Shown: in pieces, positions 28,839 through 41,782 of the stretch
Layout: every line of letters begins with the position of its first letter
Position numbering within the stretch: the first letter of the stretch is position 1
Translations under genes and position numbers: made by a program
The notes under the pieces: generated by a model
The model's database searches: none
Seen by the model: the letters and a program-made list of their open reading frames with translations, nothing else
Told to the model about the DNA's origin: nothing
DNA from: Candidatus Krumholzibacteriia bacterium
Lineage (GTDB): Bacteria > Krumholzibacteriota > Krumholzibacteriia > Krumholzibacteriales > Krumholzibacteriaceae
Direction of reading: 5' to 3'
NCBI GenBank assembly: GCA_963836185.1
Contig: CAWIIQ010000001.1
Coordinates: 1,856,001 to 1,920,000 of the forward strand
Length of the DNA stretch: 64,000 nt

Positions 28839-30519
28839 CTAGATCCCCTTTGTCGCGACGTCTTCTTTCTCGAGTTCGTCGATCTTGGCGAGCATCTTCT
28901 TCCCGTTCTCGTTCTCGGGATTCATGGCGATCGACTTCTCGTAGTACTTCCGGGACTTTTCGTATTTCCCGGCCACGAGCAGCGCCTCGCCCATGCTGTC
29001 ATATGTATTCCACGATTCGGGATACATATTGATGGTCGTCTTGAAGACGAATATCGACTCGTCGACATGCTCGTTGAAGAGGAAGACGTAACCAAGCGTG
29101 TTGAATTCGGCTTCCTTGAAATAGATGTCCTTGTCGCCGCTCGCCTCGAGCGTCTTCAGTTTCTTCAGGACATCATTCGCGTAGTCCTTGCCCTTTTTCT
29201 TGAGAGCATTCGCGAAGTAGACGGCTGCGGAGCTCTCTCCGCTGTTCTCCACGATCTTCTTCCATGATATCTCGGTCTTTTCCTTCGGCGACATCTTGGA
29301 ATATTCTTCCTTCATCTTTTTCTTCTTGAGCTGCTGCTCCTTGAGCTCCTGATCCGTCATCTCCTTCTTCTGTGTCTGCTTTTCCTGCTCCTGTTTCAGC
29401 TGCTCTTCAGTCTTCTCCTGTTTCTCCTGGGCCTGGGTCTGTCTCCCAGATACCGGAGAGGGAAAGAGGAAGGATCAGCGTGAATACCAGTATGACGGCT
29501 ATCGTCGCCGCCCTGCGGCTCCCGGTGCTGCGGTTGATCGAAGGATTGAGGATGCACAGAAGCCTGTCCTTGAGATTAGATCCCTGAGAAATCGTAACCA
29601 CCTCCCATGCCGGCCTCGCCGCGCTGCCAAGATCGGCGGCGATATCCATCAGCAGCGACGCGTATTCCGAAGGACGCGCGCCGCTGTTGAGTACGGCATT
29701 GTCGCAGTCGCGTTCGCGCTCTATACGGAGCTGCTTTACGGCGACCCATACCAGTGGATTGAACCAGTGGATCGTCGTGGCGACATGCGCAAATAGTTCG
29801 ATCCAGCCGTCGCGTCTCATCACGTGCGCGAGCTCATGAGAGAGGACGAGCCGGACCCGTTCGTTGGACCAGGCGGCCGCGCATGAAGGAAGGATGACTA
29901 CAGGCTTGATCACTCCGGTAGTGATAGCCGTTCTGAGCCGGTCGGAAAGGAGGAGCCGGACGTCACGGTGCAGGCCCATGTTCGATGAGATCCTATCGGA
30001 CTCCTCGAGCAGATAACCTTCCGCAAAGACGGCGCTGTGTTCGACCCTCCTTATCACGATCTGCGTGAAGAGGAACCATATCGTCATAACCAGTGCTCCG
30101 AAGGCCCACACTATCAGCAGGGCCTCGGACCAGTGGATGCTTCCCAGGTCGAATCCCGATGCCGCTCCGGGCACGGAAGACGTCGTACGGCCGGGCTGGA
30201 CCGGGCCGATTGTCATCTCCTTGCCGGATTCGGTTCCGGGATTAGCGTAGGAATAGGCGCCCGAAGGCTCACCTATCCCCGGGATTATCGAAAGGTTCCA
30301 TACCGGCGAGAACGCCGCCATGACAGGCATGAGTATCAGACCCGCCAGGGCAGCGACCCATATCATCTTCCTCGCATACGCCGAAAAACCGCGCATGAGA
30401 AGGGTAGCTATTCCCGCTATTCCGCAGACTAGGCCGACCTTGAGAGAAATCCCTGCGAAGACCTCGAGGAATCCGTACCGCGGAGTGCCGGAGATCAGGT
30501 CCATGAAGAAGTTTTCCAT
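28839..30519 (-). CDS. BlaR1/MecR1-type M56 peptidase sensor with Q/E/K-rich linker and C-terminal TPR domain (apparent +1 frameshift ~29440)
   Basis: HELAH, HWFNPLVW, ERERDCD and YASLL. The frame of the TPR ORF stays open upstream of 29360 as TQAQEKQEKTEEQLKQ, joining the two ORFs; the TPR has NTLGY..YPESWNTYDSMGEA. Confidence 0.8.
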
Positions 30520-30520
30520 G

Positions 30521-30913
30521 TTACCTTCCCTCCTTCCTCGACTTCTCGATCAGTTCGATGATCGACGCGGCTTCCTCCTCGGAGAGCTTCCCCTCCGATT
30601 CCTTCAGGATCGACATGACGGCGCTCGCCTCGGCTCCCTTGTAGAAGGTGTCGAGGACATTGTACAGCGCCGCCTTTCTCGCTTTTGTCAGTGGAATTGT
30701 CGGGTAGTAGATAAACCGTCCCTTTTCCCGCTCGTGCTCCAGGAAACCCTTGTCTTCCAGAACGCCGAGCATAGTACGCACAGTTGCGTTGACCGGCTTG
30801 TCCGGAAGGGCCTCCATGACCTCCACCGCACTGACCTTCCCGAGACGGTAGACGATCTGCATGATCTGCCTTTCCCGCCTGGTAAGATCTCCTAGTTGTG
30901 GTGTCTTGCTCAT
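30521..30913 (-). CDS. BlaI/MecI/CopY family transcriptional repressor
   Basis: LTRRERQIMQIVY, TVRTMLGVLEDKG; adjacent to M56. Confidence 0.92.
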   Translation of the reverse strand: MSKTPQLGDLTRRERQIMQIVYRLGKVSAVEVMEALPDKPVNATVRTMLGVLEDKGFLEHEREKGRFIYYPTIPLTKARKAALYNVLDTFYKGAEASAVMSILKESEGKLSEEEAASIIELIEKSRKEGR

Positions 30914-33361: not shown

Positions 33362-33415
33362 AAGACAGGTTAGTACATGTTGAGGTGCCTGTTCCAGTCA
33401 TTTGAATATAATACT

Positions 33416-33442
33416 GGCCGGCGGCCCTGAGGGCCGCCGGCC
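33416..33442. terminator. GC-rich hairpin after the RQGEWFF gene
   Basis: Perfect 12-bp stem ggccggcggccc-tga-gggccgccggcc, 10 nt past the stop; only a weak U-tract. Confidence 0.5.
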
Positions 33443-33452
33443 TTCTCTCGAG

Positions 33453-34262
33453 TCAGTCAAGGAAGACGACGTTCCGTGAGCTCCTCTCATCGTTGAGGAG
33501 CACCTCGTGCCAGCTGTCGAGATGTATCGTCCTGTGGTCCGGGTGCCGCACATATCCGCAGGCGAAGACGCGCGCGTTCATCCTCATCGGCTGGGCACGG
33601 CGCCTGTGTACGGCTGCAAGGAACTGGTAGTGCCTCTGCTTAAACACCTTTCTACCGAGGATGTAGACAGTCTCTCCCCCCTCGCGCACCAGCATCTCGC
33701 ATACGTGAGCTTTGCTCCCGGCGTTTCGCTGTATCGGTTCGTCCCTGTGGATAACGGACTCGTCGAACTCCTTATCCACCGGGATAAAGAACCATTCTCC
33801 CTGCCTTCTGAAGATATCGTTCTTCCTGCTCTTGAGATCCGCGGTCCTGATCGACCGGGATACACCCTGCATGGTGGGCGGGAGAAGGGCCCGCCATGCG
33901 TCGCGCACAGTGCTGACCGGTTTCCTGATCTCGGTGACGAACCAGTGCCTCTCGTCGTGACCGCAGAGAAACCTGCGCCCTCGTGATGTCATCATGAGAA
34001 GATGCCTCTGCTTCGGCAGGGACTGAAGGACACGGAACCCGATATCCCGGCCTTTTCTTATCCGGATATCGAAGTACTCGCCCTTTTTATCGTCCGAGAT
34101 ATCGATCGTGAACGCGGGAAGACGACGCTCCCTTTGACGGCGGAACCTTTCCTGACGCAGCGTCTTCGGTTCGCTCCTCAGCCGTTCGGGAAGTTCCACC
34201 TCCCCGAACCTGACGCGGCCGCCCATCGACTCGAAATGTTTCGAGAGGGAATCCAGCCTCAT
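33453..34262 (-). CDS. uncharacterised basic, His-rich protein (LCGHDERHWFV / RQGEWFF / HPDH motifs)
   Basis: 269-aa ORF with strong GGAGGTG SD; Arg-rich; His/Cys-containing motifs; C-terminal VFLD. Confidence 0.8.
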   Translation of the reverse strand: MRLDSLSKHFESMGGRVRFGEVELPERLRSEPKTLRQERFRRQRERRLPAFTIDISDDKKGEYFDIRIRKGRDIGFRVLQSLPKQRHLLMMTSRGRRFLCGHDERHWFVTEIRKPVSTVRDAWRALLPPTMQGVSRSIRTADLKSRKNDIFRRQGEWFFIPVDKEFDESVIHRDEPIQRNAGSKAHVCEMLVREGGETVYILGRKVFKQRHYQFLAAVHRRRAQPMRMNARVFACGYVRHPDHRTIHLDSWHEVLLNDERSSRNVVFLD

Positions 34263-34431
34263 GGCTCACCTCCATTTCATGGCCCGCGGTACGGCTTACC
34301 TCAGGGGTATGGTGCGGCAGGTGCCGCCCCGCGGGCCGTCAGCGTCCGGCGTATGCCCGCCGCACTAGGCTACCGGACGCAATACGCCTGTGAATCATGA
34401 ATGACCTGTTACGCGGTCAAAGCCGCGTCAT

Positions 34432-34485
34432 TCATAATTCAATACTAAAATATTTAATGGAGGTGCTAAGGCTGGTCACGGACAT
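34432..34485 (-). CDS. putative 17-aa leader peptide MSVTSLSTSIKYFSIEL
   Basis: GGGAG SD 7 nt before the ATG; TGA stop inside a hairpin arm; lies in a long structured 5' leader. Confidence 0.4.
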   Translation of the reverse strand: MSVTSLSTSIKYFSIEL

Positions 34486-34596
34486 GGCGAGTCTCCCGTG
34501 ATAAAGAATTGGTTACCCTTGTTCCTGTCACCCCTGACAGGAATATTTTCGCAGAACGCTTCCTGAAGGGTCAAGAAATATTTTCGCCGGACGTTT

Positions 34597-36795
34597 TCAT
34601 TCCTGCCCGAATTCCTCGAGATAAACACGGATGAACTCGGCGAGCGACCATGCCTGGCTTGCCGCCCCGCCGAACTCCTCTTTGCCCGGAATGAAGCGGC
34701 CGTCCCTTATCTCGCGAAGGGAACCCGTACACCCCTCGTCGAGGATCTCTTCGATCATCGGGGCGAAGAGCTCTCGGGCAGCCTGCTCTTCTCCGGCCGC
34801 GACCATGCATGAGATCGCCGGGCCGGCGAGCCATACCCAGACGTCTCCGTTGTGATAGGCAGCGTCATAGTAGTAGCTGTCCAGATCGAGATGCAGCGTT
34901 TTGAAATCGGGATCGTCAGGATCGAGAGAAGTGACGCCATGCGGCAGGATCACGGTCTCCATCGCCGTCGAGACTATCTCCCTGAACTGTACCCAGGTGA
35001 CGAGCCCGGCATACTCAGGTGTCTCGCCGAGCCGGAAGGAGTCCATGAGGCCGAGCATCCTGAGGGTATCGAGATAGACCCACAGGGCCAGCAGGGCGTT
35101 GGGCCTGACCTGGGTGTCCGCTGAACCGTCCGTGTTGAGATGATCGTGGAGATATTTGCGCTCCTCCCACCAGTAACTGCTCCTGAACGACTGCGCGAGC
35201 ATCCCTGCGTGTGCCATCCACGTTTCAGCGCTGCTGCCGGTATCCACGCCCACTTCCGATACCGCTTCGGCCCACATCGAACCGACGAGCAGCCCGTGAT
35301 GGAAAAGTACCTGCAGTTCTACCGCCCTGTCGCCGCGGGGCGAGAAGGGATTGTGCTCCCCGCCTGCGTCCATCCAGGTCTCGCCATCGCCATGCGTGAG
35401 AAATCCACGGTGATCGACCGCCTTCTCGAGGGCGCCGTCGATGGCAAGCCTGATCCTCGGCCATGCCTCGAGGAGGAATTCCCTGTCACTCGTTGCCAGG
35501 TAGTACTTCCACGCGGCACGCACGAACCACCATGTGCCGTCTACCCCGGCGTACTGGAGATTGTCCGGATTGACGATGTTGGGCATCCTGCCCAGCCTGT
35601 CACTGCCGGAATCTGTCTGCTGGTATTCCATAAACGAGGTAAGGATCTCTCTTGCCGTCTCGAACTCGCCTGTAGCGAGGCAGGCTCCCGGAAGGCAGAT
35701 GAAAGAATCTCTTCCCCAGTAGTTGGGGAACCAGTGGAACCCCGCGTAGATGCCCCTTCCTCGCTGGTCCATGATGAGGTTGTCCATCGAGGCGCGCGCC
35801 CAGCAGTAAGCCTTGAAGTCCCTTGTCGGAGGATGTGGATCCGGACGCCTGAATCCTTCCGCATCCTGTTTCGAGAATTTCGGCGGATCGTTCTCCCGGT
35901 CGATCAGCTGGAGCTTATCAGCGATCCTCCCGTATTTCGCCGCCTTGAGTTCGAGCCTGTGCTCGAGGATCCTCTCCGCCTGCTCGACCGCGTCGTTCTC
36001 TGTAACACCGAGCCCGAAGGCAAATACGACCTCCCCGACCGATCCCGCATGAGGGGTGAAGGTGAGCCTGCCCGGCGAGAATGGCGAGGTCCTCCCCATC
36101 GCCTTTCGAGCCATGTCTGTCGGATAAGTCCTGTCCTCGAACCTCTCTTCCGGCTCGAACTCCATCTCCGTGTCGCTCTTGATCGCTATCCAGCGGGGCC
36201 TGCCCGGCTCGAACGGGTCGTCCGAGCGTGATATGAGCAGGACATTGTTCTTCTTCTCCCAGAAGATCCTGTAATCAGGCTTCGGGACATCCCAGATATA
36301 GCGCATATCGACCCAGGGAACGAGGGTGCAGGAGTCGCCGAGCATCCCCGCGTACCTTACGGCAAGGCCGTTCTCACCGTCGGGGAGCATTATCTCCTCG
36401 ATGACCTGGTTCAGCTCATACCACCTGTATAACGTTTGCGGATATGCCCTTGTGAGCTTCACCTCATCTGGATTCAAATGCGATTGCCCGTTATGGAAGT
36501 CCCACGAGTCGAGATATTCATGCATCGCGCAGTAGAGCCCGTGATAGCTGCGCCTGTTCCGTGAATTAGTCTCGCAGCTGAAGTGGGTCGCGACCTTGTT
36601 GGTCGTGATATATTCTCTCGAGTGGCCGCCGGCGACCCTTATCTCCCAGGTCTCGCGGAGATCGAACGGTTCCTCTACGAGCGTCTCTCCAGTGACATCC
36701 TCTTCCATCTCTTTAGAGCTCCATGTCTGTGTGCCGGAGCACCCTGTGATCAATACCAGCGCGGTCAAAACAGCGATCGTGTATCTCGTGTTCAT
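34597..36795 (-). CDS. amylo-alpha-1,6-glucosidase (GDE C-terminal/GH133-like), lipoprotein
   Basis: LITG|C lipobox; [37 protein letters not shown] and QAWSLAE. Confidence 0.85.
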
Positions 36796-36909
36796 CCTTA
36801 CCCCCTTGTCACGGGCATCTTACCCGATAGAGACCGGAGCGGCAACCATTCCTATCCACTTGACTCCCCCGGCGGCGCCGTTGTAAAGTCCCCGGGAAAG
36901 GAAATCTCC

Positions 36910-38008
36910 ATGGCAAAGGTAGAATTCAGGGACGTAGACAAGATATATCCGGGCGACGTAAGGGCCGCCTCAGATATCAACCTCACCGTCGAGGACAAGG
37001 AGCTTCTCGTCCTGGTCGGCCCCTCAGGATGCGGCAAATCGACTGTACTGAGAATGGTAGCCGGCCTCGAGGAAGCGACAAACGGGCATATCTACTTCGA
37101 TGATACAGATGTTACCGACCTTCCTCCCAAGGACCGGGACATCGCGATGGTCTTCCAGAACTACGCCCTTTACCCTCATATGAACGTCTTCGACAACATG
37201 GCCTTCGGCCTCAAGCTCCGCAAGTACCCGAAGCAGGAGATCGAAGAGCGCGTCCGGGAGGCCGCGAAGATACTCGGGATAGACCAGCTCCTCGAGCGCA
37301 AGCCGAAGGCCCTGTCAGGCGGGCAGCGCCAGAGAGTCGCCCTTGGAAGGGCGCTCGTCCGAAAACCGAGCGTCTTCCTCTTCGACGAACCGCTCTCGAA
37401 CCTCGACGCGAAGATGCGCGTCCAGATGCGCACCGAGATCCGCAAACTCAATCTCGATATTCAGACGACGATGATATACGTCACCCACGACCAGGTAGAG
37501 GCGATGACCCTCGGCGACAGGCTCGCCGTAATGGACGTGGGAACGATCCAGCAGGTCGGCACCCCTATCGACCTCTACAACAGGCCGGTGAACAGGTTTG
37601 TCGGTTCGTTCATCGGATCGCCCGCGATGAATTTCGTAGAGGGAGAGGTCAAGGGCGGGGATACCCCGGTATTCGAGACGACGTTCACATCCCTGCCCGT
37701 ACCGGAGAGATTCAGGCCGGCCCTCGGGCAGCGTGAAGCTGACACTCGGCATCCGGCCCGAGGACCTCTACATCTCCGTACCTGACGAGGACCAGGGCAG
37801 CTTCCACCAGATAGATGCTGTGATAGATGTCTCCGAGACACTCGGCAACGAGATGATATTCCACGTCGACGCCGGCGGACAGAGGCTCGTCGTCAGGGAA
37901 GATCCCGACGTCAGAGCTTCCCACGGGGACAAGGTCAGGCTCAGCATCGACCTCGACAACATCCATTTCTTCGACGGCGAGTCGGGAGCTTCCCTGCTAG
38001 CAGGCTGA
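36910..38008 (+). CDS. MsmX/UgpC-type sugar ABC transporter ATPase (apparent +1 frameshift ~37727)
   Basis: [28 protein letters not shown] and DEPLSNLD; the OB tail LGIRPED continues in the next frame. TTGACT-N18-TAAAGT promoter candidate at 36860-36889. Confidence 0.9.
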
Positions 38009-40223: not shown

Positions 40224-41782
40224 ATGAACGAACAGACTTACAAAATGAGACGAAGCCATATCTCCCTGTACGTCATCGTCTCGATGAGCGGCGCCGCGGT
40301 GCTGGCGTTAGAGCTTCTCGGCACGAGGGTACTCGGACCATTCTACGGGGTGAGTCTCTATCTCTGGTCCGCCCTTATCTCCGTGACACTTGCCGCTCTC
40401 AGCGCGGGGTACGCCGTGGGCGGACGGATAGCGGACCGCAGGGGAACGATGAAAGGACTCGCATTCATACTCGCGGCGGCAGGTGTCTGGATCTGCCTCA
40501 TCCCGCTGATAAGGCATCCCGTCATACTTCTTCTCGAGCCACTAGGCCTGAGGATCACTGTGCTGCTGGCCGCGATGATCCTGTTCTTCCCTCCCCTGAT
40601 GCTTCTCGGGATGGTCAGCCCCTGGGCGGTGAAGCTGAGGACCGCCTCCCTTTCAGAGGTCGGACGTTCCGCCGGCAACCTCTACGCGATATCGACTATC
40701 GCCAGCGTAGCGGCGGCCCTGCTCACGGGATTTGTGCTTATACCGGGATTCCCTGTATCGAGGCTGATACTGGGGATAGGCGCCTTCCTTCTCCTGGCGT
40801 CCCTGATCGCCGTTCTCAGTGACAGGTCGAGGACGGCTGTATCCACGGCCGTTCCCCTCGTGCTCTTTATAGCCGCAGCGGCTGGCACGATGACATTACC
40901 GGCGCTGCCTGCCGCGACAGGAAACGCCACCATCCTGGCGAGCGGACAGAGTCCGTATGCTGAGATAAGCGTCGTCGAATACAGGGAAGCGAAGTTCCTC
41001 CTGATAGACGGCTCAAATCATACCTTCACTGATGCCGGTTCGGGAGACAACCTCTTCCCATACGTGAATGTCCTCGATATCCCCAGATTCATGTTCAAAG
41101 GGGCGCGGGCAGGCCCTTCTGATCGGACTCGGCGGAGGATCGGTCGCAAAGAGACTGTCCCTGTTCCAGTGGGAAGTCGACGCAGTCGAGATAGACCCTC
41201 TTGTCATCAGGTATGCCAGGGAACACTTCGGACTCAGGCCGGACGATGCGGTGATACACGAGATGGACGGCCGCAATTTCCTGATAAGCACCGACGGACA
41301 TGTGGGACATGATAATCCTCGACGCCTTCGGAAGCGGAGCGGTGCCGTTCCACCTTATCACCGAGGAGATGATGGAACTCGTCTCCCGACGGCTGCGTCC
41401 AGGAGGAATCGTCGCGGTGAACGTCCTCACTGTAGGATGGAAGAGCGATATCGTCCTCTCGACCGCCGCCACCCTCGAGACCGTCTTCGACGAGATAGTG
41501 GTCCTTCCGATACCCGAGCCGCCCAACACACTCGGCAACGTGATCATACTCGCCGCCCACCGCCCCCTCGAACTGCGCACCGAGCTCGACCGCCCCTACT
41601 CGAGGTTCAGCGAGGAGTACGACATGAACCACGCGTGGGAAAACCGCTTCAGGCCCGACACGGAGAACGCACTCATATTCACAGACGACAGGAATCCCGT
41701 GGACCTCTGGGGAGAAAGAATCAATGTCGTCGACCGCAGGCACATCCGCGACTATTTCAGGGATGCCGGCTTCAGCTGGTAG
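40224..41782 (+). CDS. fused membrane (MFS-like)/spermidine synthase-like methyltransferase (two apparent +1 frameshifts, ~41100 and ~41299)
   Basis: SGAAVLALELLGTRVLGPFYG, GNLYAISTIAS; then LIGLGGGS, VEIDP, DGRNFL; then DAF..PFHL and FTDDRNP. Confidence 0.82.

Follow-up and report, generated by a model that had tools for sequence, protein, structure and literature searches.

A structured leader with a short upstream open reading frame as a probable stall-activated attenuator of an uncharacterised gene in Krumholzibacteriia

The 64,000-nt stretch of Krumholzibacteriia DNA that we analysed (the window) carries, on its minus strand, a leader of about 283 nt which is probably a stall-activated translational attenuator: a ribosome held on a short upstream open reading frame (uORF) would free the start site of a predicted translation-stress gene, which encodes an uncharacterised protein of 269 aa. 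The locus runs in the order glycogen-debranching-family gene (GDE), leader, 269-aa gene, GC hairpin and mnmA (Table 1). A ribosome-sensing riboregulator on such a gene had been proposed in the first-pass annotation, and the proposal is now backed by a conserved helix between the uORF and the main ribosome-binding site (RBS), by a model of RBS opening and by the neighbourhood of the protein family. The predicted folds fit activation by stalling and activation by translational coupling alike; the sign that we favour would follow from the precedent of Escherichia coli toiL-topAI together with the family context.

Table 1. Features of the leader and its gene, in window positions
Feature	Position	Strand	Remarks
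Sigma70-type promoter candidate	34545..34574	-	-35 at 34574-34569, extended -10 at 34550-34545; positional conservation
11-nt direct repeat	34587-34577 and 34552-34542	-	Sequence
Hairpin 1	34522..34543	-	Top (34537-34529) can alternatively pair with 34309-34301 in hairpin 5 (cross-pairing B, 9 bp)
Hairpin 2	34476..34501	-	uORF SD (34497-34493) at stem top, uORF ATG in loop
17-aa uORF, predicted sensor	34432..34485	-	Homologous uORFs 4-20 aa
Anti-start (34475-34468) and anti-SD (34465-34456), uORF codons 4-10	34456..34475	-	5′ strand of closing helix; 19.2 expected pairs, -28.6 kcal/mol
Hairpin 3	34397..34435	-	Starts at uORF stop; compensatory changes in G001 and G003
Mini-ORF 2	34431-34417	-	Ends TGA
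Mini-ORF 3	34398-34339	-	Ends TGA
Alternative helix D, 7 bp	34388-34382 with 34354-34348	-	One double change
Hairpin 4	34380-34342 (element 34342..34388)	-	Fold
Cross-pairing C, 10 bp	Hairpin 4 loop 34365-34356 with 34321-34312	-	One G-U to A-U change
Hairpin 5	34281..34337	-	Encloses the 3′ strands of cross-pairings B and C (34309-34301 and 34321-34312), 2 bases apart
Main SD, spacer, ATG (34262), codons 2-3	34253..34276	-	3′ strand of closing helix, predicted hidden in OFF state
269-aa uncharacterised protein P0001	33453..34262	-	Mostly beta strands; family linked to tRNA arrays and RNA-repair genes
GC hairpin, 12 bp, weak T tract	33416..33442	-	3′ of 269-aa gene; terminator-like or stabilising

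All element coordinates were re-extracted from the window and agree with those first given for them. The five consecutive stems of the first-pass annotation (hairpins 1 to 5) are common to the minimum-free-energy and centroid folds, and a 291-nt stretch of the leader folds at −127.2 kcal/mol, whereas its shuffles average −98.8 (z −5.26; 0 of 200 equalled it). A search of Rfam 15, which had been proposed as a check, places the leader outside all Rfam families: nothing in the window reached the gathering threshold and the leader had no match even at E-values up to 10. No intrinsic terminator was found between the uORF and the 269-aa gene, the only terminator-like site lying 3′ of the gene, where comparable hairpins also occur in L083, L003 and L084. 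Nor was an antisense promoter-like site found in the leader region.

The promoter candidate stands where it had been placed, and TTGAC is found in the corresponding place in 11 of the 14 homologous leaders examined, with two of the three misses being contig ends; the motif match taken alone, however, is at chance level (one found, 0.6 expected). The direct repeat flanking it is present too, but it is not kept in the congeneric genomes G001 and G003 and an operator role is unsupported; of 292 control upstream regions, a set that includes the 269-aa gene, 8 contain an exact 11-nt repeat whose copies lie within 60 nt. Hairpin 2, retained in all three genomes of the genus, had been thought to bury both the Shine-Dalgarno (SD) sequence and the ATG of the uORF. 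The SD does lie at the top of the stem, but the ATG is in the loop, and opening the uORF's own RBS is predicted to cost 8.6 kcal/mol, below the genome median of 10.3, so that the uORF would be accessible.

The largest helix of the leader had been overlooked. Part of the uORF is predicted to pair with the main start site in a closing helix of about 19 bp (34475-34456 with 34276-34253), which in the unconstrained fold encloses stems 3-5 as a multiloop. To each of 292 genes of the source genome (G000) with at least 250 nt of free upstream DNA and a strong SD, their starts crudely called, we assigned the best pairing of an SD-led short ORF with the main RBS, a score defined after the locus had been seen. 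The 269-aa gene ranked first with a duplex of −30.7 kcal/mol; 3 of the 292 genes reached −25 kcal/mol and 22 reached −20 kcal/mol.

The energy required to open the main RBS was modelled with a ribosome at successive uORF positions and compared with a median of 10.3 kcal/mol over 60 control genes. Opening is predicted to cost 21.7 kcal/mol in the free RNA, 17.6–17.9 with a ribosome at codons 1-2, 13.3 at codon 3, and 7.7–11.6 at codons 4-13; the modelled cost rises again to 18.3 at codon 14 and 21.5–22.6 from codon 15 to the stop, which lies 170 nt before the main start. Since a ribosome at codons 1-2 lowers the opening energy only to 17.6–17.9 kcal/mol, agents that stall ribosomes at start codons may induce weakly here. 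Two further mini-ORFs had been described alongside the uORF. Their positions, the reading frame that all three share (the main gene is in a different one) and the three TGA stops are as described, but a function finds no support: ribosomes on these two leave the main RBS at 20.9–22.5 kcal/mol in the model, and mini-ORF 3 is not conserved, its ATG being absent in G003 and its length altered in G001. The earlier suggestion of termination or UGA sensing falls, as homologous uORFs end in TAA, TAG or TGA and a ribosome at the stop codon leaves the RBS closed.

Homologous loci were collected from the best 80 of 562 genome, the best 80 of 115 viral and the best 80 of 556 metagenome matches, together with genome searches, and a tree was made from 110 of 195 full-length proteins (all high scorers and every second other; the fragment L086 was omitted). 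The leader-bearing loci fall in one clade of 22 (support 0.948), or 23 loci with L086. The first-pass annotation would have given up its proposal if homologues lacked long leaders, uORFs or covarying stems. Judged by eye, the layout of promoter, uORF, stems and SD is present in 13 of the 23 clade loci among the matches listed, across two phyla, and such a leader is absent from nine; the remaining locus (L176) is cut 27 nt upstream. Six of these leaders belong to the family of the window or to a close relative from a metagenome, and seven to a second phylum, where the gene is present in 8 of 31 genomes; the L003 leader has the same sequence as that of L085 (G036, a genome of the same family). 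What is kept is the uORF:RBS layout, not the peptide or the UGA stops.

Duplexes of −20 kcal/mol or stronger were found in 12 of 20 scored clade loci versus 5 of 179 non-clade loci, among the matches listed; for L010 and L256 the best score came from another short ORF. All but one of the 13 leaders have 11–21 expected uORF:RBS pairs. The modelled opening energy drops by at least 5 kcal/mol in nine of them, by about 4 in L011 and L258, by about 2 in L086 and not at all in L256, and among four further loci that were modelled a drop was seen in two and none in two. In the seven second-phylum leaders it is the beginning of the uORF that pairs with the SD and start of the main gene, with 91.7% of cells paired. 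Covariation of this helix, measured on seven related sequences, is 0.325 (1 of 500 shuffles), compared with 0.03–0.16 in slid controls, and one pair is seen as U-A three times, C-G three times and G-C once. Double changes occur in only 2 of 12 pairs (221 of 500 shuffles). The second codon of these uORFs tracks the spacer between the SD and AUG of the main gene, a spacer that could otherwise vary freely.

The 269-aa protein belongs to a large family, with 1,567 homologues among 2,166 candidates, in bacteria and large phages; P0002-P0009 are 57–68% identical to it, and the invariant motifs are GHDERHW-like, RQGEWFF and HxDH. Its predicted structure is confident (pLDDT 89.5). Pfam and NCBIfam gave no match to it, and among 45 alignment members weak Pfam matches occurred in only one or two, with one weak PHROG match. 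Foldseek against PDB and BFVD returned nothing at E 0.001, the best hit being an unnamed viral model (E 0.002, TM 0.35); VIA-align with the whole-chain model reached a best Z of 4.3, matches in the Atlas were to unnamed clusters only, and tblastn of plasmid and phage collections matched none. In the literature, mostly open-access main texts, no paper was found on the leader or on the protein family. Many homologues from large phages (L124-L167, viral contigs) align only from about residue 80–98 on, and the Atlas holds viral clusters of 159–191 aa for the C-terminal half; the C-terminal part may be a stand-alone domain. A resemblance of this half to the small ‘RQGD’ proteins beside DUF6745 was considered, and no confirmation of it was obtained.

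The link to translation stress comes from the genes around the family. At least three same-strand tRNAs lie nearby in 27 of 78 genome, 26 of 51 viral and 15 of 78 metagenome loci among the matches listed, and neighbours there include HNH (80 loci), TROVE (28), RtcB (28), RNA ligase (11), band-7 (6), GNAT (6) and RlaP (4) genes. Altogether 133 of 192 non-clade loci listed have at least three tRNAs or an HNH, TROVE, RtcB, RNA ligase, band-7, GNAT, RlaP or EF-Tu neighbour. None of the 23 clade loci has tRNA or RNA-repair neighbours, and the stress link of the gene studied here is thus borrowed from distant relatives. On this neighbourhood the protein likely acts in RNA or tRNA repair or in ribosome rescue, and we infer that the leader-bearing clade left the stress cluster and has a stall sensor of its own. 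Translational stress induces tRNA arrays, rtcB and an HNH gene in Anabaena (PMC8421152), where the regulon of the same repressor, TrcR, also takes in slipin and GNAT genes (PMC10272220); the repair systems described for jumbo phages include tRNAs, RNA ligases and TROVE (PMC7824862). The gene kinds of the TrcR regulon and the cyanobacterial L-arrays, as reported there, are the same (tRNA arrays, RtcB, HNH, slipin, GNAT), but TrcR is described as a DNA-binding repressor at direct repeats (PMC8421152, PMC10272220). At the present locus the direct repeat lacks conservation, and regulation would act on the RNA.

An SD-led short ORF stands just upstream of the family gene in 21 of 40 array-adjacent loci among the matches listed, against 1–4 in shuffles; no such enrichment was found in 97 other cellular or 46 viral loci. 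RBS occlusion was considered for these array-embedded homologues and set aside, being mostly absent, with opening at 3–12 kcal/mol in 18 of 18 loci. In seven loci mostly beside tRNA arrays (L017, L058, L199, L216, L219, L220 and L032), SD-led ORFs of 24–30 aa lie about 185–100 nt upstream and share a nucleotide motif at the 3′ end of the ORF, followed by stems; this element is probably a separate conserved attenuator RNA. L017, L058 and L032 are from Pyrinomonadaceae or Acidobacteriota. Another seven loci (L015, L193, L195, L026, L198, L210 and L247) have uORFs of 16–21 aa about 120 nt upstream, which overlap or precede a hairpin with a T-rich tail and, with their alternative pairings, look by eye like transcription attenuators. 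The family therefore seems to carry different uORF switches by lineage, with RBS occlusion at the present locus and terminator-like hairpins in arrays.

The attenuator that we favour would work as follows. Transcription would start from the promoter near 34545, as its positional conservation suggests, and the accessible RBS of the uORF would, according to the model, be loaded first. A ribosome translating normally would presumably have left by the time that the main RBS, about 220 nt further on, is transcribed, or shortly afterwards; the closing helix, for which folding and covariation argue, would then form round stems 3-5 and the gene would likely be silent. A ribosome held at codons 4-13 would instead cover the anti-SD, the main RBS would open, as modelled, and the gene would likely be translated. 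By analogy with topAI, Rho may shorten an untranslated main ORF and leave a leader-sized RNA; rho scored over the cut-off in a search for it, and the leader has no clear C>G tract and no evident C-rich rut. Cross-pairings B and C and helix D would likely make up an alternative ON fold that occupies internal anti-SD-like segments. Because the peptide is not conserved beyond the demands of pairing, the trigger would be a general slowing of translation (antibiotics, damaged tRNA) rather than one ligand.

The closest described system is E. coli toiL-topAI, in which a uORF pairs over a long range with the main RBS and stalling is proposed to unmask it; it is described as sensing translation stress broadly, with Rho termination as a second layer, and its topAI leader has 171 nt (PMC12121999). 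The present leader likewise has a long 5′ region, a uORF paired to the main RBS and, by prediction, unmasking on stalling. It departs from the published account of toiL-topAI in its phyla, its target gene, its length (about 283 versus 171 nt), the three large stems within the closing helix and the conserved cross-pairings, and, unlike toiL, which pairs along its length, only codons 4-10 pair here (PMC12121999). As in systems of the toiL/ermC kind, prediction and covariation indicate an upstream short ORF with an accessible RBS and a uORF pairing that hides the main SD and start, and in the model the RBS is freed by a ribosome within the uORF though not by one at the stop codon.

In ermC/ermB and cat/cmlA, the position of the ribosome on the leader ORF sets access to the downstream SD, with drug-specific stall motifs, adjacent hairpins and resistance genes as targets; here, in contrast, there is no conserved peptide and the uORF is itself the anti-SD, 180–220 nt away. 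The whiB7/wblC, vmlR and cplR attenuators act through intrinsic terminators, and in this they differ from the leader, where a terminator-like site is absent; terminator-like hairpins do follow uORFs in some array-embedded homologues, as judged by eye. The toiL account names ermB/ermC, whiB7/wblC, vmlR and cplR alongside as uORF attenuators, and, as is proposed there for the last three, the uORF here would sense several ribosome-targeting drugs (PMC12121999). An amino-acid attenuator or arrest peptide (trpL, tnaC, secM, ermCL) was also considered and rejected, conserved control codons or an arrest motif being absent.

Some RNA evidence comes from a library of one study (a single run with 0.09 of words present, depth 2.1, contigs only). 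One contig from a relative spans 34270-34527 of the leader; it is single and shallow, and DNA is not excluded as its source. It has seven differences, of which the five listed (three unpaired, two pair-keeping) all fit the fold, one of them changing U-G to C-G in the closing helix. No contig of this run lay on the 269-aa gene, which may be too divergent to map. The contig end at 34270 was considered as evidence of termination and rejected on account of the one study, the depth of 2.1 and a gene that is possibly unmappable. Over the tuf/ribosomal-protein region, patchy contigs about 94–96% alike reach a depth of 3–6.5, here too with DNA not excluded, and a relative was probably present in the run.

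Within the genus the leader is conserved beyond what an attenuator of this kind explains. Compared with G000, and with loops included, stems 4-5 are identical at 103 of 109 positions in G001 and 97 of 109 in G003, against 40–50% of 4-fold sites in the flanking genes; between G000 and G001 the figures are 94% for stems 4-5, 67% for coding sequence and about 50% for 4-fold sites (19/37, 75/151, 54/113). For the 269-aa protein itself the identity of G000 and G001 is 61%, against 495 of 566 residues for GDE and 298 of 356 for MnmA; the divergence may reflect either fast evolution or separate acquisition. Four helices of at least 8 bp are shared by all three genus leaders, versus a null mean of 0.025 (maximum one in 40 shuffles), and the helices compatible with all three include the two non-nested ones, B and C. 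Covariation over these three sequences falls short of significance (170 of 500 shuffles were as good), and hairpin 1 and cross-pairing B are invariant in all three genomes, with covariation absent. A shorter analogue of C was seen by eye in G008, and in L009/L011 the 5′ end makes a compensated pairing with the interior.

In G003, which is 97% complete, the 269-aa gene is absent. At the locus (L271:2030-2400), GDE is followed by the promoter, a uORF of 13 aa and every stem, after which come the end of the gene region and mnmA; the main SD is lost, the anti-SD core is changed and the hairpin after the gene region is shortened, a state that a recent deletion may have produced. An effect of the orphan leader on mnmA was modelled and rejected, the mnmA RBS opening at 8.4 versus 8.4–8.6 kcal/mol. 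BLAST of 208 genomes found no leader copies outside G000, G001 and G003, with seven further matches of 23–39 nt at E 0.001–0.006, and a covariance model run on 43 family genomes matched only G000, G001, G003 and G008; it picked up no g2 leader and no leader from the second phylum. The leader is present in one copy per genome, always at the same locus. The attenuator model does not explain the conservation of stems 4-5 or the retention in G003; B and C may be part of the ON state or of an RNA with its own function. Since G003 keeps the leader without the gene, the leader could still be a small RNA partner of the 269-aa protein, as the first-pass annotation had offered.

These observations would be accommodated by a two-state leader, in which the uORF-closed fold alternates with a double kissing-loop of hairpin 5 with hairpin 1 and the hairpin 4 loop and the residual RNA is functional. 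In such a leader, a leader-sized RNA left by premature termination and having its own function would explain why G003 retained the leader when gene, SD and anti-SD core were lost. We consider this combination unlikely; if true, stalling would be reported both by switching on a protein of apparently undescribed fold, one from the RNA-repair systems of bacteria and large phages, and through a change in the amount or conformation of a structured small RNA.

Translational coupling would have the opposite sign: each ribosome translating the uORF would melt the closing helix and the cross-pairings would lock the ON fold, so that output tracks active translation, or an antisense RNA or protein gates it at hairpins 1-2. 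The same closing helix and RBS-opening model apply to coupling, the conserved non-nested pairings B and C and the compensated 5′-end pairing of L009/L011 suit it, and repZ of IncI plasmids provides a precedent with a leader peptide and a pseudoknot (PMC8053102). The likeness to IncI/IncB repY-repZ lies in a leader peptide plus long-range loop pairing tied to the main RBS; in the published accounts that system concerns a plasmid rep gene with antisense control and an adjacent start, whereas here the locus is chromosomal, the uORF lies far upstream and no antisense RNA was seen (PMC8053102, PMC10724649). We nevertheless judge coupling quite unlikely, given that the uORF ends 170 nt short of the main gene and that the RBS stays closed in the model while a ribosome sits at the uORF stop, that constitutive output poorly suits a family from stress clusters, and that the region yielded no antisense promoter-like site. 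Coupling of exactly the IncI repY/repZ kind was rejected on the 170-nt gap and the chromosomal position between GDE and mnmA.

A structured RNA with its own job would be a double kissing-loop with a ligand or protein as its partner (possibly the 269-aa product, in autoregulation), or would act in trans after premature termination, for which a leader product, peTrpL, is a precedent (PMC7298713). The conservation of stems 4-5 far above neutral, loops included, the excess of shared long helices, the library contig on the leader and the G003 locus, which retains promoter, uORF and stems without gene or SD and with no modelled effect on mnmA, all speak for such an RNA. We would nonetheless be surprised if this were an additional or the main role of the leader: the case is built on three genomes in which covariation is not significant, G003 may be a recent deletion, and the RNA is confined to a single copy at this one locus. 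In the other leaders, moreover, the interior is wholly different and the common element is the uORF:RBS helix.

A ligand- or peptide-specific attenuator (an arrest peptide, an amino-acid sensor or a UGA/RF2 termination sensor) appears improbable. The uORF starts are rich in Ser and Thr, and chloramphenicol is reported to stall ribosomes after Ala, Ser or Thr (PMC12121999); the length and frame of the uORF are also kept from G000 to G001. The uORF peptides, however, have no motif in common beyond the paired codons, codons 11-18 are identical at 14 of 24 positions, which is near neutral, and any stop codon is used, with the RBS left closed by a ribosome there. Chance structure in GC-rich intergenic DNA, or the remnants of a mobile element, is highly improbable, as the patchy distribution that favours it (the gene is present in 11 of 208 phylum genomes, and in G002, G006 and G009 GDE joins mnmA directly, with neither leader nor gene) is outweighed by the z of −5.26, the conservation above neutral, the covariation, the rank of 1 in 292 and the single copy, which largely refute it.

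As a stall-activated attenuator, the leader would be an apparently undescribed, covariation-supported cis-regulatory RNA from uncultured phyla, toiL-like and among the few broad stall sensors described. It would also place a large nameless family in the response to translation stress and in RNA repair by two independent routes, the array neighbours and the stall-type leader. Should a function be shown for the double loop pairing and for the gene-less copy, the leader would in addition represent a new structured RNA.

Minor observations concern the surrounding DNA and one distant relative. A short stretch 5′ of mnmA (33362-33405 of the window) is kept in G000, G001, G002 and G003 and looks promoter-like by eye. 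In G292, about 1 kb separates the two pieces of a family member (L266/L267), each of which contains a TGA; this would be an insertion or a pseudogene. Genes at 28839-30913, 36583-38008 and 40224-41782 of the window are apparently split across two frames, as assembly indels or pseudogenes; we take them to be a BlaI/BlaR-like pair, an ABC ATPase and a spermidine-synthase-like gene.
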